This document shows positions 21,152 through 51,496 of a stretch of DNA of 64,000 nt, piece by piece (position 1 is the stretch's first letter; each line of letters begins with the position of its first letter). Under the pieces are notes generated by a model, which did no database searches, was not told where the DNA came from, and saw nothing but the letters and a program-made list of their open reading frames with translations. Source of the DNA: a virus (lineage: Duplodnaviria; Heunggongvirae; Uroviricota; Caudoviricetes); IMG/VR virus record IMGVR_UViG_3300045988_150439; one strand, written 5' to 3'. The position numbers and the translations under genes were made by a program.

Positions 21152-24100
21152 ATGAAGGCACTGATGGTTCGAACTGACTTCTCACTTGGGGAGTCGGCTC
21201 TAAAAGCAGAAAACGCGGTGAAGATTGCCAGAGAAGCTGGCTACACCGCTGTAATTTCAGCAGATAGCATGAATATTGCAAGTGTTATTCCACTACAACG
21301 TGCCGCTGGTGACGACATGGCGGTTATTTGTGGTGTGAAACTAAACATTGTTGATGATCCCACATACGAGCACCGGGCTAAACTTGCTAAAGAATCTATG
21401 AGATGTATGGAATCATTAGAGCGGGGACGCAACTACTCGTTTACCGCTCTAATTAAAAATGAGCAAGGATATCGCGACATCTGCGAACTAATGACGGCGG
21501 CCAACACACGAGAACAGTTCTACTTTGTACCGCGTCTCTCGCTCGAACAGTTGGTTTCTACATATGCCAAAGGCAACATCATCCTGCTTACTTCCGACAT
21601 CGGTAGCGTGTTCCAACGCAACGATTTTGCAAAAATCATAAGCACACTGATTACAGCGGGTGGAAAAGACAACTTCTATAGTGTGGTTTATCCGCACCCT
21701 ACCCCATTCTACGACCAGATTAACGTCCGGGCGATGAAAGTCGCCAGCGCACTGAAAATAGAGCCAGTAGCGTTTTATCCCGCTTATTACGAATCGATCG
21801 ACGATGCAGACATTAAAGACATTGCGCACATGGTTACGAACAACATCAAAATCGACCAGCCGCATCGTCTGCGTATCCCCCACCAGCGAGATAACGCCAT
21901 CAATGGTCGTCGCCATCTCCTTGAGGCGCTTAAAGCCTTCTCCGTTCGCATGGATGTGCCGGTAACAGCTGCAATGGCCTCAACAACGCAGGACTCCATT
22001 ATCGATGCCTGCACATGGCGCTGGCATGAATTGCCACCAGCACTGCCCAAGATGGCAGACGACGAACCTGCAACGCTGATGAAACTGGCTGTTGAAGGGC
22101 TGCGTAAACGTCTTACCACAAAAGAGTTTGGATACACACCACCTGCTTCTGAGAACAGGGTTTATGTTGAGCGGCTAAAGTACGAAATGGACACGCTGAC
22201 TCGCCTGGGATTCTGTGGTTACTTCCTGATGGTACGCGATCTGATGAATCATAGTCGTGAAACTGGCATTCCCGTTGGGCCTGGTCGTGGTTCCTCTGCC
22301 GGTTCTCTGGTGGCGTGGTGCATAGGCATAACCAACGTCGACCCAATCCGTCACGGTCTTCTGTTTGAGCGTTTCATCAACCCTGAGCGTCTCGACTTGC
22401 CGGATGCGGACTTGGACTTCAGCCAGGCACGTCGCCATGAGGTGATCGAGTATCTGAATGAACGCTACGGCGAAGATTACGTTGCAGGCATTCCGAACTT
22501 CACCTATCTGGGCGCGGCATCTGCGCTGCGTGACACTGCACGTATTTACGGTGTCGATGCTGCGGATATGGCGGTATCCAAAGAGTTCAAGAATATGGAG
22601 GACGACAGCCTGTCTCTGGAAGAGCTGCGCGAGCAACTGGCCAGCCTGGACAAATACGCCACGAAAAACCCGGAAGCGTTCAAAGCGGCGTGTAAGCTGC
22701 AAAGCCTGATGCGTGGTTTTGGTCGTCACGCTGCGGGGATGATCGTCGCTGGCGTTCCATTAGTAGAGCGCACGCCCGTCGAGCTGCGTGGCAATGCTCG
22801 ATGTATTGCGTTCGATAAACGTTACTGCGAGGCGATGGGGCTGATTAAGTTGGACGTTCTCGGTCTGGCAACACTCGATCTTCTGGATAGCGCGAAACGC
22901 TACATCAAAGAGAGCACCGGTGAAGACATCAATCTCGACGCTATCCCACTGGACGATCGCAAGGTTCTGGATGGGTTCGCTGCAGGGTACACGCAGGGCG
23001 TATTCCAGCTGGAGTCCGGCCCCATGCGTAAGCTGCTTAAAGATCTGGGCGGTGGCATCGAGCCAATGAGTTTCAAAACCGTTGTCGCAACTACCGCCCT
23101 CTTCCGACCGGGACCGATTCAATCCGGCATGTTGGATGACTATGTTTCCGTTGCGAAAGGATTTATGACGCCTACATCACTACATCCTGTCTTGGATGAA
23201 CTGACCTCTGAAACAAATGGAGTGATTCTCTATCAGGAACAAACGATGAACGCAACAAGGCTTCTTGCTGGTTTCACAATGGCTGAGGCGGATGGTGTGC
23301 GTTCAGCAATCGGTAAGAAGAACATGGAAAAGATGAGGAGCATGGGTGAGAAATTTGTCATTCAGGCTCAAGCTGGGTGGATCGACGTAGAGCTTGAAAA
23401 TGGCGCAATACAACGGATTCATCGCGCAGAACATTTTAAATGCGAGGACGGTACTCTGAGGACAGTTGAAGAGGCGTTGGAGCATGGAGTGAAGCTGCCA
23501 ATGCCAGTTGTGCGCGTTACAACGTCACATCCGGGTCTGTCTGAGACGAAGGCAAAAGAGATATGGACTGCATTTGAGAAAAACGGAGCCTATCAGTTCA
23601 ATAAATCACACTCCGTTGCTTATTCTTTAATCAGTTATCAGTCTATGTGGCTAAAGACGCACTACCCTGCTGAGTTCTTCGCAGCTGCGCTCACCATTCT
23701 GGGCGAGGATAAGCATCAGGGGCTGGTGAAGGATGCGCTGACCTATGGCATTCGCGTATTGCCACCAGACGTTAATGTGTCATCTAACCGAATTGAGATC
23801 CGCACACTCGAAGACGGCAGTCAGGCACTGTATGCGCCATTCTCTGCTGTGAAAGGCTGTTCTGAAAATGGTTGTCAGGCAATTATGCGTGCGCGTGAGA
23901 AAGTTGGTGGCAAATTCGAGTCAGTGGCACAATTCGATGAAGCGGTCGAGAAGCGTGCATGTAACAGTCGTGTACGCGAGTCGCTTCATAAAGTAGGGGC
24001 TTTTGCGTCAATTGAGCCAGGCAGTCTGCCAGCAACTGATCCTGAACGACTGCGCGACCAGGCTGAGCTGATGGGCAATCTCATCATTGACGCTGTTAAA

Positions 24101-24670
24101 GCATCACGTCCGTTCGAAATGAATCCTAAGCGTTCTGCCGAAATCAACGTACTCATGACACGTATGGCGGTTGAAATGGGCTTGGGTGAGGAGTTGATAC
24201 GCCCGACTATTGGTATTAAACCCAAAATCATGATCATTCTGGACAATGCGAACGGCAATGACGCTCGTACCGGCTACTTCATGGAGAACGGATACGACGA
24301 CTTTAAGGCAAAACTACTGACAGTTGGAGATCTGCGCATGGGCGATCTTTATGTCACGGGTGTTTGTAAGAAGGTTAAGGACAAAGAGAAAGACTATACC
24401 AAAGACGAGATAGGCCAGTTCACAGACTTTATGCGGGAAGAAATTAATCTTGTACGACCAACCTACATTTTGACGTGTGGTAGTCGTTCAACCGCACTAT
24501 TTAACAATAAGAGTAAACCATCAGATCTGATTGGTCGTAAGGAGTACTTCCCAGAGCTTGATGCAACCGTCTTCTACGGATTTAACCCGAATATCCTGTA
24601 CTTCCGACCGGAAGAAGGAGAGCGACTGGAGGCCATTCTGGCTGATATCGCGGAGACAATAAATAAGTAA
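21152..24670 (+). CDS. dnaE: DNA polymerase III alpha subunit (DnaE-like replicative polymerase)
   Basis: 1172 aa; conserved Pol III alpha core segments (GCSENGCQAI..., FNKSHSVAYSLISYQSMWLKTHYPAEFFAA); the N-terminal PHP-like region lacks the usual His cluster. Confidence 0.7.
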   Translation: MKALMVRTDFSLGESALKAENAVKIAREAGYTAVISADSMNIASVIPLQRAAGDDMAVICGVKLNIVDDPTYEHRAKLAKESMRCMESLERGRNYSFTALIKNEQGYRDICELMTAANTREQFYFVPRLSLEQLVSTYAKGNIILLTSDIGSVFQRNDFAKIISTLITAGGKDNFYSVVYPHPTPFYDQINVRAMKVASALKIEPVAFYPAYYESIDDADIKDIAHMVTNNIKIDQPHRLRIPHQRDNAINGRRHLLEALKAFSVRMDVPVTAAMASTTQDSIIDACTWRWHELPPALPKMADDEPATLMKLAVEGLRKRLTTKEFGYTPPASENRVYVERLKYEMDTLTRLGFCGYFLMVRDLMNHSRETGIPVGPGRGSSAGSLVAWCIGITNVDPIRHGLLFERFINPERLDLPDADLDFSQARRHEVIEYLNERYGEDYVAGIPNFTYLGAASALRDTARIYGVDAADMAVSKEFKNMEDDSLSLEELREQLASLDKYATKNPEAFKAACKLQSLMRGFGRHAAGMIVAGVPLVERTPVELRGNARCIAFDKRYCEAMGLIKLDVLGLATLDLLDSAKRYIKESTGEDINLDAIPLDDRKVLDGFAAGYTQGVFQLESGPMRKLLKDLGGGIEPMSFKTVVATTALFRPGPIQSGMLDDYVSVAKGFMTPTSLHPVLDELTSETNGVILYQEQTMNATRLLAGFTMAEADGVRSAIGKKNMEKMRSMGEKFVIQAQAGWIDVELENGAIQRIHRAEHFKCEDGTLRTVEEALEHGVKLPMPVVRVTTSHPGLSETKAKEIWTAFEKNGAYQFNKSHSVAYSLISYQSMWLKTHYPAEFFAAALTILGEDKHQGLVKDALTYGIRVLPPDVNVSSNRIEIRTLEDGSQALYAPFSAVKGCSENGCQAIMRAREKVGGKFESVAQFDEAVEKRACNSRVRESLHKVGAFASIEPGSLPATDPERLRDQAELMGNLIIDAVKASRPFEMNPKRSAEINVLMTRMAVEMGLGEELIRPTIGIKPKIMIILDNANGNDARTGYFMENGYDDFKAKLLTVGDLRMGDLYVTGVCKKVKDKEKDYTKDEIGQFTDFMREEINLVRPTYILTCGSRSTALFNNKSKPSDLIGRKEYFPELDATVFYGFNPNILYFRPEEGERLEAILADIAETINK

Positions 24671-27170: not shown

Positions 27171-28199
27171 ATGTCTAAGACATTACTTGATTTGCTTAAC
27201 AAAACTCGTGAAGACATTGCCGCCAAACGTGGCAACAACGTTGATCTGACTCGCTTAAAAGACGGCGTCAACTATATCCGCATCTTCCCGAATAAAGACG
27301 ACCCAAACGGTAAGTTCTTCCAGACTTTCGGTATGCACTACGTTAAGTATCAGAACGAGGAAGGTAAAGAAGCAACCAACGCTTATATTTGTGAGCAACA
27401 TACTCACGGTCGCGCTTGTCAGCTATGCGAAATGGTTATGGAAGGTCGCGCTCGTCACAAGGGTAACAAAGCAATGGAAGAACGCATCGGTCAAATGCGT
27501 GCCACTCCTCGCTACCTGGTCAACGGCATTCTTTCTGCTCGTGAGGATTTCGCAGATGCTGAGAAATGCCAGTTAATCGAGCTGCCGTCTACTGTATTCG
27601 ATGATATCTGCAAAGCAATCACCGAAGACATCGCTGATGATATCGGCAATCCACTGAGCAAAGAGGAAGGCTACGCATTCCTGATTAAACGTACTGGCTC
27701 TGGTCGCGATACCAAATATGACGTCTCGCCTAAGCGTAAAGTCTACAAAGGCGATATCGAAGATAAATTCTGGAACACCCAGCATGATCTGATCGCATAC
27801 GCAAATCAGGCTGATGAAACTCGTCTTCTGTCGACAGTTCGCACTATGGGTCGTCTGATTGGTATCGCTGCACCAACTGCCGCAGCATCTGCACCAGCAA
27901 TTTCCTCAACCGCGAAAACATCGGCTGCGGCACTACCTGGATTTGGCTCTGTCACTGGTCATACAGAAGGAGCGACGGCTGTAGCAACCGCGCACACACC
28001 GGCTTCTGAACCAACCAGTCTGGTTGATGAAGAAATCCTCCGTGCCGTTGAAACTGAATTTAAACCAGAAGCAAGTTCCGCTGCCGTTGCCGTATCAGTC
28101 AAAGAGTCTGAAGCAGTCGCAGCGACATCTGTAGCAACCGCATCTGCGACGGAAGATGAAGGTCTGGATGACCTACTGAGAGAGCTGGACTCTCTGTAA
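27171..28199 (+). CDS. single-stranded DNA-binding protein, T4 gp32-like
   Basis: YIRIFPNKDD...ICEQHTHGRACQLCE parallels the gp32 zinc-binding core; Ala/Ser/Thr-rich linker; acidic C-terminal tail EDEGLDDLLRELDSL. Confidence 0.6.
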   Translation: MSKTLLDLLNKTREDIAAKRGNNVDLTRLKDGVNYIRIFPNKDDPNGKFFQTFGMHYVKYQNEEGKEATNAYICEQHTHGRACQLCEMVMEGRARHKGNKAMEERIGQMRATPRYLVNGILSAREDFADAEKCQLIELPSTVFDDICKAITEDIADDIGNPLSKEEGYAFLIKRTGSGRDTKYDVSPKRKVYKGDIEDKFWNTQHDLIAYANQADETRLLSTVRTMGRLIGIAAPTAAASAPAISSTAKTSAAALPGFGSVTGHTEGATAVATAHTPASEPTSLVDEEILRAVETEFKPEASSAAVAVSVKESEAVAATSVATASATEDEGLDDLLRELDSL

Positions 28200-28216
28200 T
28201 CCCATTACGTGACCAG

Positions 28217-28246
28217 TAAGGCGTCTACGGACGCCTTACTTTTTGG
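28217..28246 (+). terminator. Rho-independent terminator after the SSB gene
   Basis: taaggcgtc-tacg-gacgcctta hairpin followed by cttttt. Confidence 0.65.
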
Positions 28247-28259
28247 AAGGAATGTACCG

Positions 28260-29204
28260 GTGAATTATCTCTTCGTAGATGGCAATAGCCTGGGTTATTA
28301 CCACCAACAATCTGACAAATTGCACAACGGCGAAATGGAAGTTCAGGCTGCTTTCGGCTTTGTTAAGAACGTCCGTCGTTATGCCTCCATCCTCCATGCC
28401 CGACCTATGATTCTTTGGGATGGATTTAGTGACAAGCGTCGCGACTTTTACCCGGACTACAAAGCAAATCGCGACGACGATCCTGATATGAAAAAGATGA
28501 AGGAAGGCTTTGCTGTCCAGAAGCCATACATCCTCAAAATGATGACCGCGCTTGGTGTTAACCAAATCATTGCAAAAGATGCAGAAGCGGATGATCTGGC
28601 CGGACTGCTGGTATCCCGCATGGCACCGCAGCCAACCGTTGAACACATCTATCTATTAACAGGCGATAGCGACTGGCTTCAGTTAGTTCGCGAAAACGTA
28701 AGCTGGGTAAGCCTGCGTGAAGACGCCAAAAACAAGCAGGTTAATTTTGAGCAATTTGCGGAGCTGACAGGATTCGCCACGCCTCGCGCATTTTTGGAAG
28801 CAAAAGCATTACAAGGCGATAACTCGGACAACATTAGCGGTGTTGGTGGCATTGGTGCTGGCGGTGCGAAAGAGCTGCTGCATGAATGGGGAAGTGTCGC
28901 AACGATGGTACGCGGCATCAACGACGGCTCAATCGTGGTTAATAAAGGGCGTCATAAGACCGCCTTCAACAAACTAGCGAAGAATGCCTTCAACGAGAAA
29001 ACAGGCTGTCGAATGCTCGAAGCGTTCAAGAGAAACATCACGCTAATGAACCTGATTGAGACGAAGTTTCCGCCTACCGAAATCGAAACAATCAAAGGCA
29101 ATCGTGACGTGAAAGCATTCGAGCAACTGTGCTACGAGCTGAATTTCCGTTCGTTCCTTGAAGACCTTGAAGTGTTTGTTCTTCCATTCGAAAGGTATTG
29201 CTAA
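28260..29204 (+). CDS. 5'-3' exonuclease / flap endonuclease (FEN family)
   Basis: N-terminal VNYLFVDGNSLGYY and later acidic clusters typical of the family; start placed at the in-frame GTG after the terminator rather than at the track start (28209). Confidence 0.6.
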   Translation: MNYLFVDGNSLGYYHQQSDKLHNGEMEVQAAFGFVKNVRRYASILHARPMILWDGFSDKRRDFYPDYKANRDDDPDMKKMKEGFAVQKPYILKMMTALGVNQIIAKDAEADDLAGLLVSRMAPQPTVEHIYLLTGDSDWLQLVRENVSWVSLREDAKNKQVNFEQFAELTGFATPRAFLEAKALQGDNSDNISGVGGIGAGGAKELLHEWGSVATMVRGINDGSIVVNKGRHKTAFNKLAKNAFNEKTGCRMLEAFKRNITLMNLIETKFPPTEIETIKGNRDVKAFEQLCYELNFRSFLEDLEVFVLPFERYC

Positions 29205-29472: not shown

Positions 29473-31812
29473 ATGGCAAAAGGAAAATCCGCACTGGCAC
29501 TTGCTCTGAAAAAGAAAATCGGTAGCAACGACGAAATTCAGAAAGTAACTCATTGGATTGACACAGGCTTTCCTCCGTTAAACAAAGCTATTTCCGGTCG
29601 TTACGATGGCGGTTTCCCATGTGGTCGTATCGTAGAAGTATTCGGGCCACCAAGCGCGGGGAAATGTGTTACCGCAGACACCATGCTGCTGACGGAGCGT
29701 GGAATGGTAACAGTGAAAGAGTTGTTTGAGATTGAAGGGTACAAAGCGACATGCACTACTCGCGATGTAGAGCATAACGTTGGACTCATCAATGAAAATG
29801 GCGTGATAGAGAAGACCTCACACCTGACATGGAACAACCGTCGCAAATTCAAGCGTATTAAGCTGGCATCAGGCGGTTATATCGAGGCTACGTTCCGTCA
29901 CCCAATCCGTGTGGTTGACGACTTAGGTAATGTCGTCTGGCGACATGCTGAAAAAATCAGTGTAGGCGACACGATTCCTTCAATGGTTGGCACACATCAA
30001 TTCGGCGATCAGCACCTGGATGCCAATATCGCAAAACTGATGGGCTATTTAATTGCTGACGGATACGTGGCCTCTGAAAATTCAGTGAATTTTTCTAACA
30101 CAGATCCTTTCATCAAGGATGAGTACTACCGCCTCATTTCGCTGGTATCAGACAAGATGCCAGTTACGAGAAAACATAACGGCTCGGAAGACCATGTGCT
30201 GTTTAGCAAAGAGGTGCGTTCGCTGCTTTTTAAAGAATATGGTCTGGAGTATGAGAAAGCTGCTGGCAAGCAGGTTCCGTTGAGTGTGCGTCGCGCCAAT
30301 AGCGAGGCTCAAATTGCATTCCTTCGCGGCTACTTTGAGCTGGAATGCCACGTCAATGATGGTCGCTGCATTGAGGTTGTGAGCGCGAGTGGGCTGCTGC
30401 TACAGCAAATTCGCCTCATGCTCCTGAATCTGGGGATTACGTCAACTATCTCTGAAAAACACGTCGCGGGTTATGAAAATACATATTACCGGCTGTCATT
30501 CAGTGGCTCTAATTACGACCTTTTTCTGTCAACGATTGGTTTCGAATCTCCGGCACGTTTATCAGTGGCAACCAAACGGGACATTGGTTTTGACCGCACT
30601 TACTCAGGCTATGTTCCGCACATCAGCGGCTTAGTGAAATCACTCTACGAGTCGCTCACCAAGACCACCCGTGAAGACTACGCTCTGGTAGACCACGTTA
30701 TTGGCCGCGGCGATCGTGTCGGAATAGACAAACTGCGAGAAATCTATGTCTCCTTCATTGGCAGAAAGAATCGTTTTAACGAGCATCTGTTTGCACAACT
30801 GGCAGCGGTAATTGGCTCTAACTTGTTCTACGACGAAGTCGTGGCTATTGAGGAAGGTGAAGCACCAACGTTCGACGTAGCGATGCCGGAAACACACTCT
30901 TTCTGGTCTAACGGGATTATCAGCCACAACACATTCCTTGCAACAGCAGCGATGATCTCCGCACAGAAACAAGATGGTCTGGCGGTATTCCTCGATCATG
31001 AGAACAGTTTTGACGTTGGCCTGGCTGTAGCCAATGGCCTGAACGCAGATGAGGATGACGGTCAGTGGGTATACAAGCAGCCAGATACCTTCGAAGACTC
31101 TGTAGAGTTGATCGGCACAATACTTAAATTGGTTCGTGATGAAGAGCTTATCCCCGAATCAGCACCTATCTGTATCGTGGCTGACTCTCTTGCGTCTATG
31201 GTTCCGAACTCCAAAGCCGAGAAGTTCGAAAAGATGGCTGAAGGCACTGCCAAAGACAAAGATCAGCTAAACATGAACGACAATACGGCACTGGCTCGTG
31301 CGACGAGTGCGAACTTCCCTACTCTGGCTTTGTGGGCACGCAAATACAACGCCTGCATCATCTTCTTGAATCAGGTTCGCACAAAAATCGGTGTAATGTT
31401 TGGCGACCCTACTACGTCGCCAGGTGGAGATTCACCGAAGTTCTACGCTTCTGTACGTATCCGTCTTGGTGCATCGGTGATGAAGGATGGTAAAGAGAAG
31501 ATCGGCCAGGACGTAGGCGCAGAATGCATCAAAAACAAAGTTGCACCACCGTATGGCAAATGCACCTGGAAATTCTACTTCGATCCTACTCGTGGCCTCG
31601 ACGTTATCGAATCGCTCGTCGAGTACATGCTGGAAGAAGGATACCTGCCAAAGAACGCCAGCGGGCGAGTTGAAATTGGTGACAAGAAATACACCAAATC
31701 GCAGATCGTCGAGATGTATCGGGAGAAGCCATTAGCAGAAATCATTGCTGCGTTACAGACGATAGATGACCGACGAGAGAAGACATCACCAACAGAAGAA
31801 CTAGAAGATTAA
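29473..31812 (+). CDS. recA: RecA-family recombinase interrupted by an intein
   Basis: N-extein ends GRIVEVFGPPSAGK; C-extein begins TFLATAAMISAQKQ and carries ICIVADSLASM, IIFLNQVRTKIGVMFGDPTTSPGG and KFYASVRIRL, all RecA signatures. Confidence 0.8.
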   Translation: MAKGKSALALALKKKIGSNDEIQKVTHWIDTGFPPLNKAISGRYDGGFPCGRIVEVFGPPSAGKCVTADTMLLTERGMVTVKELFEIEGYKATCTTRDVEHNVGLINENGVIEKTSHLTWNNRRKFKRIKLASGGYIEATFRHPIRVVDDLGNVVWRHAEKISVGDTIPSMVGTHQFGDQHLDANIAKLMGYLIADGYVASENSVNFSNTDPFIKDEYYRLISLVSDKMPVTRKHNGSEDHVLFSKEVRSLLFKEYGLEYEKAAGKQVPLSVRRANSEAQIAFLRGYFELECHVNDGRCIEVVSASGLLLQQIRLMLLNLGITSTISEKHVAGYENTYYRLSFSGSNYDLFLSTIGFESPARLSVATKRDIGFDRTYSGYVPHISGLVKSLYESLTKTTREDYALVDHVIGRGDRVGIDKLREIYVSFIGRKNRFNEHLFAQLAAVIGSNLFYDEVVAIEEGEAPTFDVAMPETHSFWSNGIISHNTFLATAAMISAQKQDGLAVFLDHENSFDVGLAVANGLNADEDDGQWVYKQPDTFEDSVELIGTILKLVRDEELIPESAPICIVADSLASMVPNSKAEKFEKMAEGTAKDKDQLNMNDNTALARATSANFPTLALWARKYNACIIFLNQVRTKIGVMFGDPTTSPGGDSPKFYASVRIRLGASVMKDGKEKIGQDVGAECIKNKVAPPYGKCTWKFYFDPTRGLDVIESLVEYMLEEGYLPKNASGRVEIGDKKYTKSQIVEMYREKPLAEIIAALQTIDDRREKTSPTEELED
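29665..30930 (+). mobile_element. intein with LAGLIDADG homing-endonuclease domain, inserted in the RecA P-loop
   Basis: Begins with Cys (CVTADTMLL), ends SHN followed by Thr; two LAGLIDADG-type motifs (LMGYLIADGYV and FLRGYFELECHV); removing the 422 codons restores GPPSAGKT. Confidence 0.75.
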
Positions 31813-38823: not shown

Positions 38824-38864
38824 AGCAAAGTCGTTATGGGAGCTTTCGAGACTTTGCCATCACG

Positions 38865-41711: not shown

Positions 41712-42281
41712 ATGAGTAAAAAAATCAGCGTAGTTGGTGTTGATCCCTCAATGAGCAACTTTGGGCTTGCTGTGGGCACTTTAGACCTTGAAACGGACGA
41801 ACTTGAGATTCACGGCCTTACTCTTGTTGAGACTAAAGCGGGGAGTAACAAAAAGACCGTTCGTGTGAACAGTGACGATCTGCGCCGTGCCAGTGAAATA
41901 TGGCGTGTTGCGAAGCCAATCATTGATAAGGCAAATATGGTTTTTTGTGAGCTACCGGTTGGGAGCCAAAACTCTCGTTCGCAGACGTCTTACGGTATTT
42001 GCATCGGTGTACTTGCGTGCGTAGATAAGCCATTGATCCAGGTTACTCCAAACGAAATTAAACATTTTATCGGCAATAAACTTACAACATCGAAAGAAGA
42101 GATTATCCAGTGGGCTACGAAAAAACACCCTAAAGCACCGTGGCTGCGTCGTAAGCAATCTGGACAGGATGTTCTCGTGAACAAAAACGAACATTTGGCT
42201 GATGCGGTGGCTGCCATCCATACCGGTATGCAAACAGATCAGTTTCGCCAGGTGCGCGATGTTCTCAAGTCTCTCATTTGA
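41712..42281 (+). CDS. RuvC-like Holliday-junction resolvase, putative
   Basis: N-terminal VVGVDPSMSNFGLAV (RuvC-type first acidic motif), CELPVGSQ, and C-terminal HLADAVAAIHTG. Confidence 0.5.
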   Translation: MSKKISVVGVDPSMSNFGLAVGTLDLETDELEIHGLTLVETKAGSNKKTVRVNSDDLRRASEIWRVAKPIIDKANMVFCELPVGSQNSRSQTSYGICIGVLACVDKPLIQVTPNEIKHFIGNKLTTSKEEIIQWATKKHPKAPWLRRKQSGQDVLVNKNEHLADAVAAIHTGMQTDQFRQVRDVLKSLI

Positions 42282-42354: not shown

Positions 42355-44670
42355 ATGATAAGCATCGTAAAACGTAACGGCCAAACAGAGCCGTTATCCG
42401 AAGATAAATACAACCGCGTCGTAATGTATGGCGTAGAAGACATTCGTGGCGTAAGCGCATCCGCTGTAGCAATGGGAGCTGCGGCCAGCATTTTTGATGG
42501 GATTACCACCAGCCAGTTGCATGAGGCTTTGGTTAAATCTGCCGCTGATTTGATCTCACCAGAAGCACCAAATTACTCACAGGTGGCTGCCCGCCTGAAC
42601 ATTTTTAAAATCCGCAAAGATGCCTTCGGTCGTTACGACTATCCGAACTTCTACCAACACATTGTCAAGAACGTTAACAAGGGCGTTTATGACAAGGATT
42701 TGCTGACACATTATTCATTTGAAGAGATCGAAGAACTCGGCAATTACATTAAGCCTAAACGTGACGATCTTTTTGGCTATGCAGCTACGGTGCAATTGCA
42801 AAGCAAATACCTCGTTCAAAACCGCGTTACTGGTGAGATTCATGAGGGGCCGCAACATATCTATATGCTGGTAGGCATGTGTCTGTTCCAGAATTGGGAA
42901 GACGACTGCGCTGGCAAAACACGTATGGAGATGGTCAAAGGTTTCTATGACGTTACAAGTACGTTCAAACTGTCTCTGCCCACACCAATCATGGCCGGCG
43001 TCCGTACTCCAACCCGTCAGTTCTCCAGTTGTGTGCTGATTGAGTCTGGCGATAGTCTGAAAGGGATTAGTGCAGCTTCAGCCGCAATTATCGACTACGT
43101 TTCACGTCGTGCTGGAATTGGTATTGGTTTTGGCCGTATCCGTGCGCTGGGCAGCGAGATCCGCAATGGTGAAGCCACCCATACCGGAGTTATTCCATTC
43201 CTGAAGCATTTCCAGACGGCTGTTAAATCTTGTTCGCAAGGTGGTGTTCGTGGTGGCGCAGCAACAGCGTTTTACCCGATCTGGCATCTTGAAGTTGAAA
43301 GTCTGCTGGTGGTGAAAAATAACCGTGGTATTGATGAAAACCGCGTTCGCCATCTTGATTACGGCGTCATGAGTAACCGTCTAATGTACCGTCGACTCGT
43401 CAGAAGCGAGAACATCACTCTGTTCAGCCCGCATGATGTGCCTGATATGTACGAAGCCTTCTTCACAGACCAGGATCTGTTTGAAAAGCTGTACCATAAA
43501 TACGAAGCCGATGATTCAATTCGCAAGAAGTCAGTACCTGCCATTGAGCTGTTCTCATCTCTGATGCAGGAACGAGCGTCCACGGGCCGAATTTATATTG
43601 CGAACGTCGATCATATTAACGAGCATGGCGCTTTCATTCCTGCTCTTGCACCTGTTCGCCAGTCAAACCTGTGCATGGAGATCACTCTACCCACTCGTCC
43701 ACTGGCATTTACCGACGACCCGAACGGTGAGATCGCGCTTTGCACTTTATCCGCTTTTAACCTCGGAGCCATCCGTTCACTGGAGTCTCTTAAAGAGGTG
43801 GCGTTCTATGCCGTTGCTGCACTGGATTCGTTACTGGATTATCAAGACTATCCGATGGAGGCAGCCGAAGTGCCAGCCAAAGCTCGCCGTAGCCTGGGAA
43901 TCGGTGTAACCAACTTTGCTTATTACCTGGCAAAGAATGGCGTTCGTTATTCTGATACCGCTGGCAATAAACTGGTGCATGAAACGTTCGAAGCTATCCA
44001 GTATTACCTTCTTGATGCCAGCTGCCGACTTGCTGAAGCAAAAGGTGAGTGTGACTGGTTTGAGCAGACCAAGTACGCAATTGGTCAGTTGCCGATCGAC
44101 CATTATCGTTCTTCATTAGACGAAAGTGGCGAAACCAACTTTGAGTTAAAGATGCCGTGGGAAGAACTGCGTGAACGTATTGCAAAATACGGTCTTCGCA
44201 ACTCCACACTGACGGCACAAATGCCATGCGAGACTTCCAGCCAGATCACTAATTCCACCAACGGCATCGAACCGCCTCGTGGCCCTGTGTCGGTGAAATC
44301 TTCTAAGGACGGCATCGTTAAGATGGTCGTGCCTGAGTTTGAAAAACTGAAGGAACAGTATGAATACCTGTGGGATATGCCGGACAACCGCGGCTATCTG
44401 ACAAAGGTGGCGATCATCCAGAAGTTCTTTGACCAGGCTATTTCAGCCAATACCAACTATGACCCTTCTCGCTTTGAAGGCGATAAAGTCCCAATGATGA
44501 CGCTACTGTCAGATTTGCTTCTCGCCTACAAGATGGGAGTTAAAACGCTTTACTACCACAACACCAGAGATGGTGCAGGAAAGCGTGATGACGACGAAGC
44601 GCAGAATCCACTTACGCAAGCTGTAGCCGTCGAGCCAGAAGATGAGTGCGACGGAGCCTGCAAAATCTGA
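42355..44670 (+). CDS. nrdA: ribonucleoside-diphosphate reductase alpha subunit (class Ia)
   Basis: 771 aa with N-terminal ATP-cone, catalytic-core segments (NLCMEI, PCETSS) and C-terminal CDGACKI redox tail. Confidence 0.85.
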   Translation: MISIVKRNGQTEPLSEDKYNRVVMYGVEDIRGVSASAVAMGAAASIFDGITTSQLHEALVKSAADLISPEAPNYSQVAARLNIFKIRKDAFGRYDYPNFYQHIVKNVNKGVYDKDLLTHYSFEEIEELGNYIKPKRDDLFGYAATVQLQSKYLVQNRVTGEIHEGPQHIYMLVGMCLFQNWEDDCAGKTRMEMVKGFYDVTSTFKLSLPTPIMAGVRTPTRQFSSCVLIESGDSLKGISAASAAIIDYVSRRAGIGIGFGRIRALGSEIRNGEATHTGVIPFLKHFQTAVKSCSQGGVRGGAATAFYPIWHLEVESLLVVKNNRGIDENRVRHLDYGVMSNRLMYRRLVRSENITLFSPHDVPDMYEAFFTDQDLFEKLYHKYEADDSIRKKSVPAIELFSSLMQERASTGRIYIANVDHINEHGAFIPALAPVRQSNLCMEITLPTRPLAFTDDPNGEIALCTLSAFNLGAIRSLESLKEVAFYAVAALDSLLDYQDYPMEAAEVPAKARRSLGIGVTNFAYYLAKNGVRYSDTAGNKLVHETFEAIQYYLLDASCRLAEAKGECDWFEQTKYAIGQLPIDHYRSSLDESGETNFELKMPWEELRERIAKYGLRNSTLTAQMPCETSSQITNSTNGIEPPRGPVSVKSSKDGIVKMVVPEFEKLKEQYEYLWDMPDNRGYLTKVAIIQKFFDQAISANTNYDPSRFEGDKVPMMTLLSDLLLAYKMGVKTLYYHNTRDGAGKRDDDEAQNPLTQAVAVEPEDECDGACKI

Positions 44671-44675
44671 CATAT

Positions 44676-44703
44676 GGTGGGGTATATCCCCACCTTATCT
44701 TTG
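44676..44703 (+). terminator. terminator-like hairpin after nrdA
   Basis: ggtgggg-tatat-ccccacc followed by ttatcttt. Confidence 0.55.
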
Positions 44704-44770
44704 ATTTGTAAGCCTTGTTTAAACACATAAGATAACAACTTGTTTAAACACATCAAAAAAGGAAAAACAC

Positions 44771-45913
44771 ATGTCATATTCAACGTTCCGTTTGGGTGCT
44801 AATGATGCAACCAAAGAGCCTATGTTCCTCGGACAATCTGTCAACGTGGCACGTTACGATCAGCAAAAATACCGTGATTTTGAAAAGTTGATTGAACGTC
44901 AATTGTCTTTCTTCTGGCGGCCGGAAGAAGTTGATATTTCGAGCGATCGTATCGACTTCAACACGAAGCTGCGAGACCACGAACGTCACATTTTTCTGAG
45001 CAATCTCCGTTATCAAACGTTACTCGATTCAGTTCAGGGACGTAGCCCAAATGCAACGCTGCTGCCGCTTATCTCTATTCCTGAACTGGAAACGTGGGTT
45101 GAAACATGGTCTTTCTCTGAGACTATCCATAGCCGCAGCTACACCCACATTATTCGTGGCATGGTGGACGATCCGAGTATTGTTTTTGACGGTATTGTTA
45201 CGGATGAAGAAATCATCAACCGAGCGATCAGTATCTCTGCTGAATATGACAGGCTTTATGGGATGACCTGCGAGCGCCAGTCGTTAGGTGAGAAAGAGTT
45301 TGAACGTCTGTACGTAAATGAATATGGCTGGGAGCCATACCCTTTGCACCGTCAGCTTTTCCGCACGTTGGTGTCCATTAATGCGCTTGAGGCGATCCGT
45401 TTCTATGTAAGTTTTGCATGTACGTTTGCCTTTGGCGAACGGAAGTTGCTTGAGGGTAACACCAAAATTATGCGCTTTATTGCCCGTGATGAAGCTCTGC
45501 ATTGCGAAGGAACTGAACGCATGATCCGCTTCATGCGTACCGGTCGCGAAGGTTTATTGTGGAAAGAGATTGCTGCTGATGAAGAAAACGTCATTTACGA
45601 CACCATGAAATCAGTAGCCGAACAAGAAATGAACTGGGCAGACTATCTCTTCAAAGACGGTTCGATGATTGGTTTAAACGCGGATATTCTGAAGACCTAT
45701 GTAAAATACCGCACCAATCTGGCTATGAATCGTCTTGGCCTGAAGGCTTTATTTCCAGAAGTTACCACAGATCCGCTGGTCTGGATGAACAAGTGGTTGT
45801 TAACCGACACACTGCAAATTGCACCACAAGAGGCAGAGCAAAGCACATATCTGGTAGGTCAGATCGATTCTACCGTGGACAAGGCTTCTCTAAGCCAGTT
45901 TGCAGACCTGTAA
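44771..45913 (+). CDS. nrdB: ribonucleoside-diphosphate reductase beta subunit
   Basis: 380 aa; ferritin-like di-iron fold with EALHCEG-type ligand segments; directly downstream of nrdA. Confidence 0.8.
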
Positions 45914-45990
45914 ACCGATACAAAGCATTATGTGGCCTGGCAACGCTGGGCCACAATGGATCACAAGAATTAAGAAGGAACAAAACTAGC

Positions 45991-46860
45991 ATGAACTTTA
46001 CCAAACTGACTGACCACCTGAAACTTGCCACCGATCGACTCATTGGATTTAAGCCAGAACCATATGAGTTGCATGAAGGCCATGGTGTAGCCACTGAAAG
46101 TATTTACAAGATGGTCGATCAGTTTCATGAACTCTTCCAGCATCCGAGACGCGTTATGCCGACACCAGAGCTGCTTCGTCTCCGTGCAAGCCTGATTCAT
46201 GAAGAAGCTGTAGTGGAAGGTATTCCAGCCGCAATGAATGGGGATATTGAGCAACTGCTGGATGCAATGGCCGACTTTTTATACGTTGGTGTTGGTACGA
46301 TGGTCTCCATCAAAGGTGGTATTTCTACCGGCATGACCTATTACACGCAGGAACAGAGCATTGATCGCTTTATGCAGACAATTTTTGTGCCCGGTAACAC
46401 TGTTTTCGATGATATGGCAATGCCATTTCAGGAAGCTCGTGAGGCGTCATGTATGCTCGAAGAGCTGGCAGATAAACTTGAGAAGAAGACTGTTAAGGAT
46501 TCTGAGCTGATTCAGGAACTGCGCCGTGTAATGAACAAAATCTATGTGGCGTGCATGATGACTTATCGACTGGCTGATTTCCTCGGTATCAATGTCGTCG
46601 AGCTGGTTGGCGAAATTCATCGGTCTAACATGACAAAATTATGGCCTGCTGATGTTGAGGAACGTCGCCAGGCTGTGGCCAACTGCAAATACGACTCTTC
46701 AGATCTGGGATTCCGCCATGCTGATGGCACCGATAAGATGATCGGTTTTCGAATTTCCGATGGAAAGATTCTGAAGTCTCCAACCTATAGTGATGTCGAT
46801 TTATCCTCCTTTGTTGAGCAAGCTAAAGCCTCAGCAATGTATGGAATGATCAAAAAATAA
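45991..46860 (+). CDS. MazG-like NTP pyrophosphohydrolase, putative (tandem all-alpha domains)
   Basis: Start moved to the ATG at 45991 (aaggaa RBS) because the track ORF start lies inside nrdB; two helical segments resemble EExxD-type NTP-PPase motifs (IEQLLDAMADFLYVGVG; ELVGEIHRSN). Confidence 0.4.
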   Translation: MNFTKLTDHLKLATDRLIGFKPEPYELHEGHGVATESIYKMVDQFHELFQHPRRVMPTPELLRLRASLIHEEAVVEGIPAAMNGDIEQLLDAMADFLYVGVGTMVSIKGGISTGMTYYTQEQSIDRFMQTIFVPGNTVFDDMAMPFQEAREASCMLEELADKLEKKTVKDSELIQELRRVMNKIYVACMMTYRLADFLGINVVELVGEIHRSNMTKLWPADVEERRQAVANCKYDSSDLGFRHADGTDKMIGFRISDGKILKSPTYSDVDLSSFVEQAKASAMYGMIKK

Positions 46861-47030: not shown

Positions 47031-48134
47031 GTGTCACTCCTTTTGAATCGTGAGCATACGAACGGTCAGGTAACAAACGCATCGTATGCAAAAGTTATTG
47101 AGACGGTGCTTAAAAGCGGCGTGCAGGCTGATGATCGCACAGGCACTGGTACTTTAAGCACCTGCTACGTTCCCTCTTATTACATGCTTACTGGTGGGAC
47201 TGTGCCGCTTATTTCTGGAAAGGCGGTAAATCTTAAGCCACTGCTTGTCGAACTTGAGTGGTATCTGAAAGGCACGGGCAACATCCAATTTCTCAAGGAT
47301 AACGGCGTTAAGATTTGGGATGCATGGGCCGATGAGAATGGCGATTTGGGGCCGGTTTACGGTAAGCAGTGGCGTCGATGGGAAGATACCCGCATCGTGA
47401 GCCATAGTGAATATCTGAGCAAGATCGATACTTTCCGTGAACGCGGGTACAAAGTCGAGGGATACCTGGGTATCAGTGAAGATCGCGTAGTGCTATCCCG
47501 TGAAATCGATCAGCTACAGCGTATTGTCGATACACTGCGCACGAACCCTACCGATCGTCGCATCATGCTTAACGCATGGAACGTAGGCGAGCTTGAGGAT
47601 ATGAAACTGCCACCTTGCCACTTTGTCTTCTCTTTGTGGAGTCGTGAGCTGGATTTTGAAACCCGTTTAACGATGGCAACTGACATTGGTCTTCAACACA
47701 GTCGCCTCGGTTACGAGTCTATCTACACCAAGATGCTATACGATCTGGAGATGGACGGCAGTGTTACTGAAGCTGAACTGGATGAACTTGGAATCCCCAA
47801 ACGCATCCTCAACTCCTGCCTCGTACAGCGTAGCGTAGACACTTTTGTTGGTATGCCATTCAATATTGCTGGCTATGGCATTCTCACTCATTTTCTCGCG
47901 AAGATTACGGGTCACATGGCCGGTGCATTTGTGCATTTTGGCTTTGACGTGCATTTGTACAACAACCACATGGAAGGTGTGTGTGAGCTAATGAAACGAC
48001 AAGCTCCAGAGCATTCAGATCCGGTCGTTATTTTCCCTCATGAATGGTCAGAGTTGGATGATTTCAAATGGGACGAGGTTTTAATTCTTGGCTATGACCC
48101 TCTACCGTGGATCAAGGTTCCAGTGGCGGTGTGA
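47031..48134 (+). CDS. thyA: thymidylate synthase, with an internal insertion of roughly 50 aa
   Basis: DRTGTGTLS, IWDAWADENGDLGPVYGKQWRRW, DRRIMLNAWNVGELEDMKLPPCH, FNIAGYG and C-terminal GYDPLPWIKVPVAV closely match E. coli ThyA; GTG start. Confidence 0.85.
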   Translation: MSLLLNREHTNGQVTNASYAKVIETVLKSGVQADDRTGTGTLSTCYVPSYYMLTGGTVPLISGKAVNLKPLLVELEWYLKGTGNIQFLKDNGVKIWDAWADENGDLGPVYGKQWRRWEDTRIVSHSEYLSKIDTFRERGYKVEGYLGISEDRVVLSREIDQLQRIVDTLRTNPTDRRIMLNAWNVGELEDMKLPPCHFVFSLWSRELDFETRLTMATDIGLQHSRLGYESIYTKMLYDLEMDGSVTEAELDELGIPKRILNSCLVQRSVDTFVGMPFNIAGYGILTHFLAKITGHMAGAFVHFGFDVHLYNNHMEGVCELMKRQAPEHSDPVVIFPHEWSELDDFKWDEVLILGYDPLPWIKVPVAV

Positions 48135-48135: not shown

Positions 48136-48549
48136 ATGGCAAGAGGTATGTATGTCTTATGCGAAATTGAAGGTGTGCTGGCAAATACCAGCCATCGTAA
48201 ATCTGTATCTGACTCGGATGCAGGCCAATTCATTGCCGGTGATGAACTCATTTTCCCCACCAGCCGTATGTTGCGTGGTTTTGCTCGCTCAGGGGCTGAA
48301 GTGGTGCTTATCAGTAGCCGCTCTGAAACTCTTGAAGCGCCCACTAAACGATGGCTGAAAGATTTTGGTGTTGATTACGACTGGCTTCATCTCGTACCGA
48401 ATAGCACCAGTTATGAGAAGCATATTAAGCGCACATTAGCGGAGCATAAAGGCGATCTGCTTATCGCTGCGCTGGTGCACGATCCTCGACTCCGTGCCGC
48501 TTTAGCTGACTCTCATCATAGACCGGTCATCTATGAGGTGAGCAAATGA
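48136..48549 (+). CDS. hypothetical protein
   Basis: 137 aa from the ATG just after the thyA stop; stop overlaps the DHFR start. Confidence 0.4.
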   Translation: MARGMYVLCEIEGVLANTSHRKSVSDSDAGQFIAGDELIFPTSRMLRGFARSGAEVVLISSRSETLEAPTKRWLKDFGVDYDWLHLVPNSTSYEKHIKRTLAEHKGDLLIAALVHDPRLRAALADSHHRPVIYEVSK

Positions 48550-49022
48550 AGATGATAGCTGCTGTTGGCCGTAACTATGAGATCGGCATAGCGAACGAAC
48601 TGCCCTGGCGTTGTTCTACCGATCTGAAGCTATTTAAGAGACTCACCAAAAACGCCACTGTCGTTATGGGGCGTAAAACGATGGAAAGTCTCAAACGCCC
48701 TCTTCCAGAGCGTCATAACCTCGTTTTGACGCGCTCTCATGGCTTTGTACCAAATGGATTCTACCCTGCTGGTGTGGATGATGTGTTGCGATTACCAGAG
48801 CCTGTGTGGGTGATTGGCGGGGAACAAATTTACTCGCTATTCATGCCGCATGTTGAAGAGATTTGGCTCTCCCACATCGGCGTTGATGTGCCAAACGCCG
48901 ATGCATTCTTCCCGGCAAGCATGATGCGTAATTTAGGCTTTGTGCCTGTTGAAACAGTTTTTACCCAACGAGCCAGCGAGGAAGAGCCTGGCTTTTCGCA
49001 GATCGTATACAGAAGGTCGTAA
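48546..49022 (+). CDS. folA: dihydrofolate reductase
   Basis: MIAAVGRNYEIGIANELPWR, VVMGRKTMESL and VWVIGGEQIY are canonical DHFR segments. Confidence 0.8.
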   Translation: MKMIAAVGRNYEIGIANELPWRCSTDLKLFKRLTKNATVVMGRKTMESLKRPLPERHNLVLTRSHGFVPNGFYPAGVDDVLRLPEPVWVIGGEQIYSLFMPHVEEIWLSHIGVDVPNADAFFPASMMRNLGFVPVETVFTQRASEEEPGFSQIVYRRS

Positions 49023-50156: not shown

Positions 50157-50951
50157 ATGGGACAACCGGTAGACATAACAGGTAAACGTTTTGGAAAGTT
50201 GGTTGCACTTAAATATTCCGGTATTTCAAACAAACAAGGGCGACTTTGGGATTGCATCTGCGATTGCGGCAACACCTGCCTGGTTAGTTACGGGAAGCTA
50301 AATCACGGGGCGACAATATCGTGTGGCTGTGTCTACAACGCACATCGCCGTAGCGTAAAGCCTCATGGTATGAGTAAAACGCCAATTTATCGTATATGGC
50401 TGGGTATGCGGGAACGATGTGAAAAACCAACCCATCACGCCTATAAGTGGTATGGCGGCCGAGGTATCAAAGTCTGCGAGCGGTGGCAAATATTTGAAAA
50501 CTTTTATGCTGACATGGGAGAGCGACCAGAGGGGATGTCTCTTGATCGCAAAGATGTGAATGGTGACTACGAACCTGAAAATTGCAGATGGGCGACTTTT
50601 GAAGAACAGGCCAATAACACGCGTTCAAACTTAATTTTGGAGCATAAGGGGGAAAAGCTGACTCTCTCACAATGGGCTAAAAGAGCCGGGATTCAGACAT
50701 CAACTCTTCACTATCGAATCAAGAAAGGGTGGCCATTAGATCGCGCGCTTAACGCCAGCGTCGACACGTATGCCAACCGAGATAGTAAGCGTCTGATCGA
50801 GTGTCGCGGCAGAACTCAGCGAATTACCGAATGGGCTAGAGAGGTTGGCTTGACTGCGACCATTATATCGCAGCGAATCTTGAGGGGGTGGGATGTTGAA
50901 GCTGCCATCTTCACACCGTCCAAACGACCAGTAAAAGGAGATAAAAAGTGA
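50157..50951 (+). CDS. free-standing homing-endonuclease-like DNA-binding protein (HNH/AP2-like), putative
   Basis: Cys/His cluster CICDCGNTCLVSYGKLNHGATISCGC, AP2-like segment YRIWLGMRERC...YKWYGGRGIKVCERW, and two repeated HTH-like modules (LSQWAKRAGI..., ITEWAREVGL...). Confidence 0.4.
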   Translation: MGQPVDITGKRFGKLVALKYSGISNKQGRLWDCICDCGNTCLVSYGKLNHGATISCGCVYNAHRRSVKPHGMSKTPIYRIWLGMRERCEKPTHHAYKWYGGRGIKVCERWQIFENFYADMGERPEGMSLDRKDVNGDYEPENCRWATFEEQANNTRSNLILEHKGEKLTLSQWAKRAGIQTSTLHYRIKKGWPLDRALNASVDTYANRDSKRLIECRGRTQRITEWAREVGLTATIISQRILRGWDVEAAIFTPSKRPVKGDKK

Positions 50952-51496
50952 TTGCTACAGGGGTGGACATCGAATCAACAGGTCTTGATTTCCTCTCAGG
51001 CCATAAAATCATTGAAATCGCAATGGTGAAGTACGAAATTGAGACACAGACAATGGTTGATAGTTTTGTAATGCGGTTCAACCCGCGTCGCAGTATCGAT
51101 CCGAAAGCGCAAGCGGTACACGGCATCAGTCTTGAAGATTTAGCCGCCGAGCCGTTACTAGCCGATCACGCTTCATCTGTCGCTTCGTATCTCTCTTCTT
51201 CCGATATTTGGATAGCCCACAACGGCGAAGCGTTCGATATTCCGTTTATTAGGCATGAGCTGAAAAGTTACGGTTTTTCGCTTCCAGACATCCCATTGAT
51301 TGACACTCTATTTTCCCTGTGGGCCACAGAAGACGGTAAACGTCCACGCCTTGAAGAGTTGGCCTTCTCTCTTGGCTTTATATACGATCATGCCAAAGCA
51401 CATAGTGCCTTATATGACACAAACTTAATGATGCAATGCTTCTTTAAGGCACGTAATAAGTACGGATTTTTTAAATTACCCTCTGAAATTGTGTAA
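50948..51496 (+). CDS. DnaQ-like 3'-5' exonuclease (DEDDh family)
   Basis: Exo I GVDIESTG, Exo II IAHNGEAFDIPF, Exo III HSALYDT; GTG start with aaggag RBS. Confidence 0.65.
   Translation: MIATGVDIESTGLDFLSGHKIIEIAMVKYEIETQTMVDSFVMRFNPRRSIDPKAQAVHGISLEDLAAEPLLADHASSVASYLSSSDIWIAHNGEAFDIPFIRHELKSYGFSLPDIPLIDTLFSLWATEDGKRPRLEELAFSLGFIYDHAKAHSALYDTNLMMQCFFKARNKYGFFKLPSEIV

Follow-up and report, generated by a model that had tools for sequence, protein, structure and literature searches.

A phage-plasmid DNA polymerase III alpha subunit without PHP metal ligands, and a separately encoded epsilon-type exonuclease as its probable proofreader in trans

Introduction

How is a replicative polymerase proofread when the editing site in its own chain appears to be gone? 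The question is raised by a 64,000-nucleotide stretch of tailed-phage DNA (IMG/VR record IMGVR_UViG_3300045988_150439; "the window" below means this whole stretch), which encodes a homolog of the alpha subunit of DNA polymerase III (Pol III), DnaE, and, 26 kb away, a stand-alone exonuclease of the DEDDh type. An initial annotation, made from the sequence alone, had read the pair as a split replicase, in which a polymerase lacking the His cluster of its PHP domain is proofread in trans by the exonuclease and forms an autonomous replisome with the element's own helicase, primase, SSB (the protein that binds single-stranded DNA), and ligase. Judged by DNA similarity and gene order, the window belongs to an SSU5-like phage-plasmid of enterobacteria. 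Here, we find that the PHP site of this DnaE is not intact and that the exonuclease is closest to the DnaQ/epsilon proofreaders; proofreading in trans therefore becomes the most reasonable reading of the locus, and it is strengthened by the co-occurrence of the two genes in 31 of 31 phage genomes.

A C-family polymerase with a degenerate PHP site

The dnaE gene and its parts are as follows (aa, amino acids of the protein):

21152-24670, + strand: DnaE, ATG start, 1172 aa
21152-22021, + strand: PHP domain (aa 1-290), fold kept, nine ligand positions non-canonical
22076-23371, + strand: polymerase core of palm, thumb, and fingers (aa 309-740; Pfam DNA_pol3_alpha and DNA_pol3_finger)
23372-23536, + strand: lineage-specific insert (aa 741-795), from the alignment
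23537-24016, + strand: (HhH)2/beta-binding domain (aa 796-955; Pfam HHH_6), aligning to Taq 791-946
24059-24073, + strand: candidate internal beta-clamp-binding motif Q970-A-E-L-M974
24197-24667, + strand: family-4 UDG-like (uracil-DNA glycosylase-like) domain (aa ~1016-1172)

The Pfam matches along the protein (PHP 6-176, 50 bits; DNA_pol3_alpha 309-571; DNA_pol3_finger 574-740; HHH_6 866-955) follow the order PHP, Pol3 core, fingers, and (HhH)2 of DnaE-type C-family polymerases. The catalytic Asp triad is also in place, as D418, D420, and D568 align with D401, D403, and D555 of Escherichia coli in the window DnaE and in four phage relatives. The best matches in the PDB are the alpha subunits of Taq, Mycobacterium tuberculosis, and E. 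coli (1e-121 to 1e-109), and the protein scores 1203 bits against PHROG 405 ("DNA polymerase") and 675 bits against NCBIfam PRK05673, under the equivalog cut-off of 1002. The C-terminal OB fold and tau-binding C-terminal domain (CTD) of DnaE1 are missing, and residues 956-1172 consist of a linker and a family-4 UDG fold. The passages on the DnaE-UDG variant in Timinskas 2014 (NAR 42:1393, PMC3919608) describe this PHP-Pol3-HhH-UDG architecture as "DnaEX," with an archaeal-type UDG (family 4) where the OB and CTD domains would be.

Metal-dependent proofreading by a PHP domain relies on nine ligand positions with the consensus H H D/H H E H C/H D/N H, at which E. coli alpha has R10, H12, D19, F44, D69, H83, G134, D201, and R203 (Barros 2013, Table 1). 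These positions were mapped through E. coli DnaE (NC_000913) in two MAFFT alignments, one of six sequences (L-INS-i) and one of 155 sequences that included 150 representatives of 50%-identity clusters. In the smaller alignment, the window DnaE presents M5, R7, E14, S39, K63, S96, G141, P210, and a gap, and in the larger one, it reads -RESKFDPY, i.e., a gap, R7, E14, S39, K63, F97, D149, P210, and Y212. Canonical ligands thus number 0/9 in both. The same 155-sequence alignment returned the published string for E. coli (RHDFDHGDR, 4/9) and all nine ligands (HHDHEHCDH) for about 70 ordinary DnaE representatives, which served as the positive control; in about 60 representatives from the phage family, the nine positions show a conserved pattern of non-ligand residues, xRETR-DPL, and 0-1/9 ligands. 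Consequently, the claim that this polymerase lacks the His cluster is upheld by both alignments, neither of which recovers an intact PHP active site.

The fold of the domain has outlived its site. The AlphaFold2 (AF2) model of residues 1-300 has a mean predicted local distance difference test score (pLDDT) of 92.9, and its top Foldseek matches are the PHP domains of Taq, E. coli, and M. tuberculosis alpha (query TM-score [TMq], 0.73-0.77), to which the sequence is only ~20% identical. A positive side chain can fill the PHP metal site (Barros 2013), and the Arg and Lys at positions 2 and 5 are replacements of this type. It could be argued that such a well-preserved fold, with acidic residues at ligand positions (E14 and possibly D149), retains proofreading at a non-canonical active site, in which case the separate exonuclease would be redundant. 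However, all of the six or seven His/Cys ligands are gone, positions 2 and 5 carry positive charges, and E. coli alpha, with four of the nine ligands, already binds no metal (Barros 2013), so we consider residual PHP proofreading very improbable. By alignment and structural model, a dead PHP site within a kept PHP fold is confirmed.

Ligand loss of this kind is not peculiar to phages. The alpha subunits of alpha-, beta-, and gammaproteobacteria, including that of E. coli, have variant PHP domains, and the loss of ligands co-varies with the occurrence of a separate epsilon homolog (Barros 2013); the DnaE2 and DnaE3 groups keep little or no ligand conservation, according to the sections of Timinskas 2014 that treat them. 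In our collection, nine cluster representatives (P0182, P0185, P0187, P0189, P0194, P0197, P0198, P0202, and P0203) combine an intact PHP domain (HHDHEHCDH) with a weaker UDG-like C-terminus. Since some 9/9-PHP representatives also carry the UDG-like C-terminus, the ligands seem to have been lost within the DnaE-UDG lineage, of which the intact-PHP representatives may reflect the ancestral state. Intact-PHP members (P0182, P0185, P0187, P0189, P0194, P0198, and others) have no close members in the phage collection; two short IMG/VR contigs were noted.

A stand-alone exonuclease of the epsilon type

The second gene lies 26 kb from dnaE, next to an HNH endonuclease gene:

50157-50951, + strand: HNH homing endonuclease (PHROG 374 "HNH endonuclease," 2e-79)
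50948-51496, + strand: DEDDh exonuclease, GTG start, 182 aa
51461-51478, + strand: exonuclease tail Y172-G-F-F-K-L177, candidate tether (family consensus [RK]GF[FY]x[LV]P)

The GTG start is preceded by an AAGGAG Shine-Dalgarno sequence 8 nucleotides (nt) upstream. The five catalytic residues, D7, E9, D97, H152, and D157, do not vary among 19 family members and align with D12, E14, D103, H162, and D167 of epsilon, and the stand-alone DEDDh exonuclease proposed by the initial annotation is therefore present as an open reading frame (ORF) with its catalytic residues unaltered. The protein matches Pfam RNase_T (PF00929, 1.3e-22); an identity as RNase T or oligoribonuclease was considered and rejected. 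The best NCBIfam models are dnaQ_proteo and PRK05711 at 77 bits, followed by DinG-exo at 74, PolC at 63, and RNaseT at 21.6 against a cut-off of 246. Furthermore, a profile built from the 19 diverse family members gave 99.5 bits for epsilon, ahead of every other DEDDh family by ~30 bits (DinG exo, 69.6; RNase T, 59; PolC exo, 58.8; ExoX, 41.7), and no match to oligoribonuclease. PHROG 192 ("DNA polymerase exonuclease subunit," 6e-51), the best solved structure (the catalytic domain of E. coli epsilon, 7e-12), and a BLASTP identity of 32% to E. coli DnaQ over residues 11-176 agree with this placement. By these comparisons, the 182-aa protein is a DEDDh exonuclease of the epsilon (DnaQ) N-terminal-domain type that looks catalytically intact. 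Its relatives are 160-204 aa long, and all of them stop just after the catalytic domain.

No other candidate proofreader was seen in the window, where the remaining nucleases are a flap endonuclease (FEN), SbcCD, a RuvC-like resolvase, and RNase H; the ORF at 41712-42281, labeled "RNase H-like" in SSU5, was considered as a second DEDD exonuclease and turned out to be the RuvC-like resolvase (phrog_159). Public records already name the two genes of interest "DNA polymerase III alpha subunit" (dnaE of Escherichia phage Cyrano) and "Exonuclease, PolIII subunit epsilon." The window exonuclease is 93% identical to Klebsiella versions and only 79% identical to that of Cyrano, from which we conclude that this region is mosaic. 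The HNH ORF upstream overlaps the exonuclease start by 4 nt, and none is found at that place in Cyrano.

Co-occurrence of the exonuclease and DnaE

We searched 50,697 phage records with tblastn, using E<=1e-8 as the threshold for the exonuclease family. Any DnaE was found in 1194 records and the exonuclease family in 31, whereas the DnaE-UDG C-terminal domain was found in 32, namely, the same 31 accessions and one 13-kb fragment. The 31 genomes include 12 SSU5-like, 10 Rhizobium RHEph10-like, 6 Pseudomonas nickie-like, 2 Stenotrophomonas, and 1 Xanthomonas phages, across which identity falls to ~36% for DnaE and ~41% for the exonuclease.

A similar balance appears among the PLSDB plasmids, with 884 records for the exonuclease and 976 for the DnaE C-terminal domain. 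By genus, the exonuclease and DnaE counts are 344/346 in Klebsiella, 195/220 in Escherichia, 136/137 in Acinetobacter, 89/91 in Enterobacter, 49/49 in Salmonella, 25/25 in Citrobacter, and 11/11 in Aeromonas. The 49 Salmonella enterica plasmid records, presumably of the pHCM2 type, match this DnaE C-terminal domain with ~90% aa identity. From these counts, the co-occurrence provides good, though not independent, phyletic support for a pairing. At the level of sequence, we regard it as established that this DnaE has no PHP route to proofreading and that functional phages always carry an intact epsilon-type exonuclease beside it.

Proposed mechanism

The best explanation, which we hold to be probable as a whole, is that the window DnaE is an active C-family polymerase for which the exonuclease acts as a trans proofreader, in the role that epsilon has for E. 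coli alpha. With every metal ligand replaced, often by Arg or Lys, DnaE would be unable to proofread through its PHP domain, which would survive as a structural scaffold only, and the separately encoded 182-aa exonuclease would supply the 3'-5' activity. E. coli epsilon binds the alpha PHP domain through its ~57 C-terminal residues, as given in the part of PMC2528190 that concerns this contact. Because the phage exonuclease lacks that alpha-binding peptide, the complex would have to be held together otherwise than the E. coli core.

Our preferred guess for the coupling, and a weakly supported one, is assembly on the host beta clamp. DnaE would bind one clamp pocket through the Q-x-E-L-M motif after the HhH, the exonuclease would bind another through its [RK]GF[FY]x[LV]P tail, and/or the partners would touch directly. 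In E. coli, alpha and epsilon each fill one pocket of the beta dimer, and the clamp-binding consensus is quoted as Qxx[L/M]x0-1F (Toste Rego et al.). The DnaE peptide Q970-AELM974 directly follows the HhH, where DnaE carries its internal clamp motif, and it lies in a conserved stretch, R-L-K-D-Q-[IL]-E-L-[ML]-P-G-[LVI], in which R966 is invariant and Q970 is found in 25/27 sequences. The exonuclease tail has the same offset from the catalytic domain as the QTSMAF motif of epsilon (182-187) and is hydrophobic at positions 4 and 6.

A clamp of its own was not found for this element. Gene assignments were made with Pfam and PHROG scans of essentially all window ORFs of at least ~120 aa, and these scans detected no sliding clamp, clamp loader, or tau-binding domain; likewise, the annotation of Cyrano beyond the region shared with the window lists none of the three. 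A hidden clamp was also considered among unassigned ORFs of about 250 aa, whose sequences are not clamp-like by eye. Since none of these functions is encoded, they would be borrowed from the host or dispensed with. For the same reason, the autonomy that the initial annotation ascribed to the replisome is overstated. The fork machinery itself (helicase, primase, SSB, polymerase, exonuclease, FEN, RNase H, and ligase) is the element's own, and the four components originally listed are all present.

A bolder version of the pairing, to which we give only a slim chance, is that the tail-less exonuclease and DnaE-UDG form a minimal, tau-independent replicase through a new interface. Each protein might occupy one host beta clamp pocket, or the exonuclease might sit on the UDG-like or the remodeled PHP domain; the UDG-like domain could then stand in for the OB fold as a module that senses DNA or uracil or that confers processivity.

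Alternative explanations

Several observations weigh against proofreading in trans or against the coupling sketched above. With 77 bits, the exonuclease stays far under the NCBIfam epsilon equivalog cut-offs (196 and 223), since it has nothing but the catalytic domain; its last residue is 182, and the alpha-binding segment of epsilon (E. coli ~187-243) is absent. The DnaE clamp motif ends in M/L, not F, and MAFFT places it opposite 896-HRAALMNSL of E. coli instead of QADMF 920-924, and the exonuclease tail has no Gln. No fusion of the exonuclease to DnaE occurs among the 150 DnaE cluster representatives (a 183-aa N-terminal extension of P0170, considered as a fused exonuclease, is not one). 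The gene lies 26.3 kb from dnaE within a nucleotide-metabolism cluster of ribonucleotide reductase (RNR) alpha/beta, MazG-like, ThyA, phosphatase-like, DHFR, and P-loop NTPase genes, the last perhaps a kinase. The co-occurrence is also confounded by shared ancestry: all 31 phages have one layout of ~105-120 kb, with the exonuclease 25-30 kb downstream of dnaE in each of them, and the counts are consequently not independent support.

The one clear exception to the pairing is Yersinia, with 63 PLSDB plasmids for the DnaE domain and no entry in the genus listing of the exonuclease. In the Yersinia pestis Antiqua plasmid pMT1 (NC_008120.1), a local tblastn search found a full-length DnaE (93.5% aa identity), CobS/T, gp32, FEN, RepA, SbcCD, and RuvC and no exonuclease, helicase, primase, ligase, RNR, ThyA, DHFR, Dam, or RNase H. 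The pMT1 record also has IS100 copies, one of which interrupts cobT, together with caf1 and phospholipase D loci; we take the latter to be ymt, the murine-toxin gene. As pMT1 is a derivative that has undergone degradation and Y. pestis is young in evolutionary terms, this exception weakens an obligate exonuclease-DnaE pairing only mildly.

Taken together, the location of the gene, the missing epsilon tether, the synteny kept across the 31 phages, and the retention of dnaE alone in pMT1 would suit a free-standing 3'-5' DNase, active in salvage, host-DNA breakdown, or recombination and repair, which merely travels with dnaE in a conserved phage backbone. T4 DexA-type DEDDh exonucleases offer a comparison model for such an enzyme. 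We consider this explanation unlikely. The exonuclease is closest to replicase proofreaders, with epsilon first and the PolC exonuclease among the lesser matches, and at the tblastn threshold used, its family is confined to the 31 DnaE-UDG phages. Moreover, a replicon of ~100 kb copied by a polymerase without its own proofreading site would be error-prone. No DexA-like family appears among the Pfam and PHROG matches of the exonuclease, DexA itself not having been used as a query.

Another explanation, in our judgment rather improbable as a whole, is that DnaE works without a dedicated proofreader or with the epsilon, beta, and clamp loader of the host, the phage exonuclease being accessory. 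DnaE would then serve lytic-cycle or recombination-dependent synthesis, and the plasmid would be maintained by RepA and the host Pol III. A Rep3-type RepA initiator is indeed present, the element encodes no clamp, clamp loader, or tau-binding domain, DnaE has a conserved peptide resembling a clamp motif, and pMT1 replicates as an IncFIB plasmid with dnaE and without the phage helicase, primase, and exonuclease. On the other hand, the epsilon-binding patch is conserved in DnaE1 and not in divergent DnaE groups (Timinskas 2014, in the passages on that patch), and nothing suggests that host epsilon binds a phage PHP domain so distant from the solved alpha structures. In addition, the complete phage set of helicase, primase, SSB, ligase, FEN, and RNase H points to a largely self-sufficient fork. 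Hence, proofreading of DnaE in trans by the phage exonuclease is the reading that we retain.

The UDG-like C-terminus of DnaE

The initial annotation missed the C-terminal domain. The DnaE C-terminus matches TIGR00758 (UDG_fam4) at 5e-7, with 29.5 bits against a cut-off of 125, and the AF2 model of the domain (pLDDT, 90.9) has the family-4 UDGs 4zbx, 1l9g, and 1ui0 and UdgX as its top Foldseek matches (E, 7e-12 to 1e-9; target TM-score [TMt], 0.72-0.78), the three family-4 structures lying at E of about 1e-11 and TMt of 0.74-0.78. DnaE also matches phrog_17, a group of SPO1-type family-A polymerases with UDG-like domains, and a GenBank note on Rhizobium phage RHEph10 reads "uracil-DNA glycosylase-like." On this evidence, aa ~1016-1172 form a UDG-like domain of family 4, which stands where DnaE1 has its OB and tau-binding domains.

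Family-4 UDGs are characterized by motif A (GE[AG]PG), motif B (HPS), and Fe-S cysteines. The window domain has the alpha/beta fold and none of these features: LDNANG (aa 1030-1035) stands at the place of motif A, F-NPN (1144-1147) stands at that of motif B, and no CxxC is found, while xD[GAC]P and a CxxC...H stretch persist in many of the relatives. Because of the altered motifs and the absent CxxC stretch, glycosylase activity in the SSU5 clade seems doubtful.

The lineage-specific insert between the fingers and the HhH (aa 741-795) has no counterpart in the aligned sequences of RHEph10, nickie, ANB28, and E. coli. In two IMG/VR loci (L056, 10001-14313, and L069, 10001-14250; ~85-92% protein identity), dnaE is broken into two ORFs by a free-standing HNH endonuclease gene, and the tblastn match breaks at aa 776-794, inside this insert; the split itself is placed at residues ~776-784. 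The ORFs of L056 encode 787 aa (PHP to fingers), 244 aa (HNH), and 389 aa (HhH and UDG-like domain). Many cluster representatives of ~780 aa suggest that a two-piece DnaE is widespread, and in Acinetobacter plasmids, the C-terminal piece is annotated separately as "uracil-DNA glycosylase family protein."

The element and its other genes

The dnaE region is 94.6% identical in DNA sequence to Escherichia phage Cyrano (phage-plasmid pLF82), 88% to PhiR41_1, and 86.7% to Salmonella phage SSU5, and the annotated gene order of SSU5 agrees with that of the window. Because of this DNA identity and gene order, we assign the window to an SSU5-like phage-plasmid, of which it represents the half concerned with replication and nucleotide metabolism. 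The other genes of the window are the following:

3953-5293, + strand: DnaB-like replicative helicase (Pfam DnaB_C, 3e-13; SSU5 homolog "putative DNA helicase")
5303-6553, + strand: DnaG/Toprim-type primase (weak Pfam DNAG_N and Toprim_2; SSU5 "putative DNA primase")
7943-9265, + strand: ATP-dependent DNA ligase (Pfam DNA_ligase_A_M, 5e-13)
17532-20971, + strand: CobT/CobS-like pair (Pfam/PHROG scans)
27171-28199, + strand: gp32-type SSB (Pfam gp32, 1.7e-66)
28209-29204, + strand: FEN-type 5'-3' exonuclease/flap endonuclease for primer removal (Pfam 5_3_exonuc_N and 5_3_exonuc)
29473-31812, + strand: RecA with intein, 779 aa (Pfam Intein_splicing and LAGLIDADG_3)
35040-36095, - strand: Rep3-family RepA plasmid replication initiator (Pfam Rep3_N and Rep3_C; SSU5 "putative replication protein RepA")
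37738-40969: SbcCD (Pfam/PHROG scans)
41712-42281: RuvC-like resolvase (phrog_159)
42355-45913: RNR alpha/beta (Pfam/PHROG scans)
~45970-46860: MazG-like protein (Pfam/PHROG scans)
47031-48134, + strand: ThyA (Pfam Thymidylat_synt)
48546-49022: DHFR (Pfam/PHROG scans)
52648-53241: Dam (Pfam/PHROG scans)
54191-54835, + strand: RNase H (Pfam RNase_H, 1.8e-44)

Directly upstream of dnaE lie the CobT-like (VWA) and CobS-like (AAA_5/MoxR) genes, after which comes an ORF of 67 aa (20974-21177) overlapping the start of dnaE; CobS is also found upstream of dnaE in Pseudomonas phage nickie and pMT1. The RecA intein bears a LAGLIDADG endonuclease domain, and the RecA-like gene of SSU5 is only 1077 nt long (~358 aa). 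The Pfam match of ThyA falls into two stretches, which suggests an insertion, and the Cyrano homolog is labeled "ThyX." An AbiGi-like protein (Pfam AbiGi, 5e-25) and an adjacent 403-aa partner ORF are encoded at 11593-13697 (- strand), and a YafO-type toxin ORF is found at 14901-15311 (+ strand); the AbiGi-like and YafO-type ORFs are probably defense or addiction cargo of the phage-plasmid.

Comparison with known systems

Like the E. coli Pol III core, the phage pair consists of a C-family polymerase with a variant, predicted metal-free PHP domain and a separate DEDDh exonuclease with all five catalytic residues. The description of the pair as split is correct insofar as two separate genes are involved; however, a variant PHP domain with a separate epsilon is the usual arrangement in alpha-, beta-, and gammaproteobacteria (Barros 2013), and because it is the norm across the host range and fits the published co-variation, it is not unusual. 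The differences from the E. coli core lie elsewhere: the PHP domain keeps 0/9 instead of 4/9 ligands, the exonuclease lacks the 57-residue C-terminal segment and the canonical QTSMAF clamp motif, no theta was seen in the phage element, and DnaE has the UDG-like domain instead of the OB and tau-binding domains, with no clamp or clamp loader encoded.

The DnaE-UDG variant of Timinskas 2014 (PMC3919608) is the same protein family, to which the pMT1 dnaE product, 93.5% identical to ours, also belongs. The passages of that paper on the variant do not include the PHP ligand state or the pairing with a tail-less epsilon-like exonuclease, both of which are documented here. M. tuberculosis DnaE1 and Thermus/Taq DnaE share the PHP-Pol3-HhH core, but they keep the nine ligands and proofread through the PHP domain, which the phage DnaE presumably cannot do. 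PolC and Bacteroidetes DnaE1 also combine a C-family polymerase with a DnaQ-like exonuclease; in these, the exonuclease is fused, whereas in the phage it is encoded 26 kb away. As an analogy only, UDG-fold modules accompany viral replicative polymerases in the vaccinia D4 (UDG)/A20 processivity factor and in SPO1-type family-A polymerases, although the phage module is fused to a C-family polymerase and its motifs A and B are altered. Our literature search found no experimental work on the polymerase or exonuclease of SSU5, pHCM2, or Cyrano.

Implications

These results describe a variant-PHP alpha subunit and its probable epsilon-type trans proofreader in a well-known mobile element, whose gene annotations and DnaE architecture were already public. 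They do not overturn the current understanding and are mostly a tidy confirmation of it. Nevertheless, the rule by which the PHP domain loses its ligands when a DnaQ-type proofreader is at hand extends to a widespread polymerase family of mobile elements, in which the loss is complete (0/9). The pair would also be a natural minimal alpha/epsilon system, without tau, theta, the OB domain, or the usual tether. If the minimal tau-independent replicase were real, it would represent a second, independent way to couple a DnaQ exonuclease to Pol III alpha and would offer a C-family replicase that is compact, transplantable, and of high fidelity.

SSU5-type phage-plasmids abound in clinical Enterobacteriaceae and Acinetobacter, and ~900 PLSDB plasmids carry the DnaE and exonuclease genes. 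The fidelity of their replicase and its dependence on the host thus bear on the rate at which these phage-plasmids evolve.

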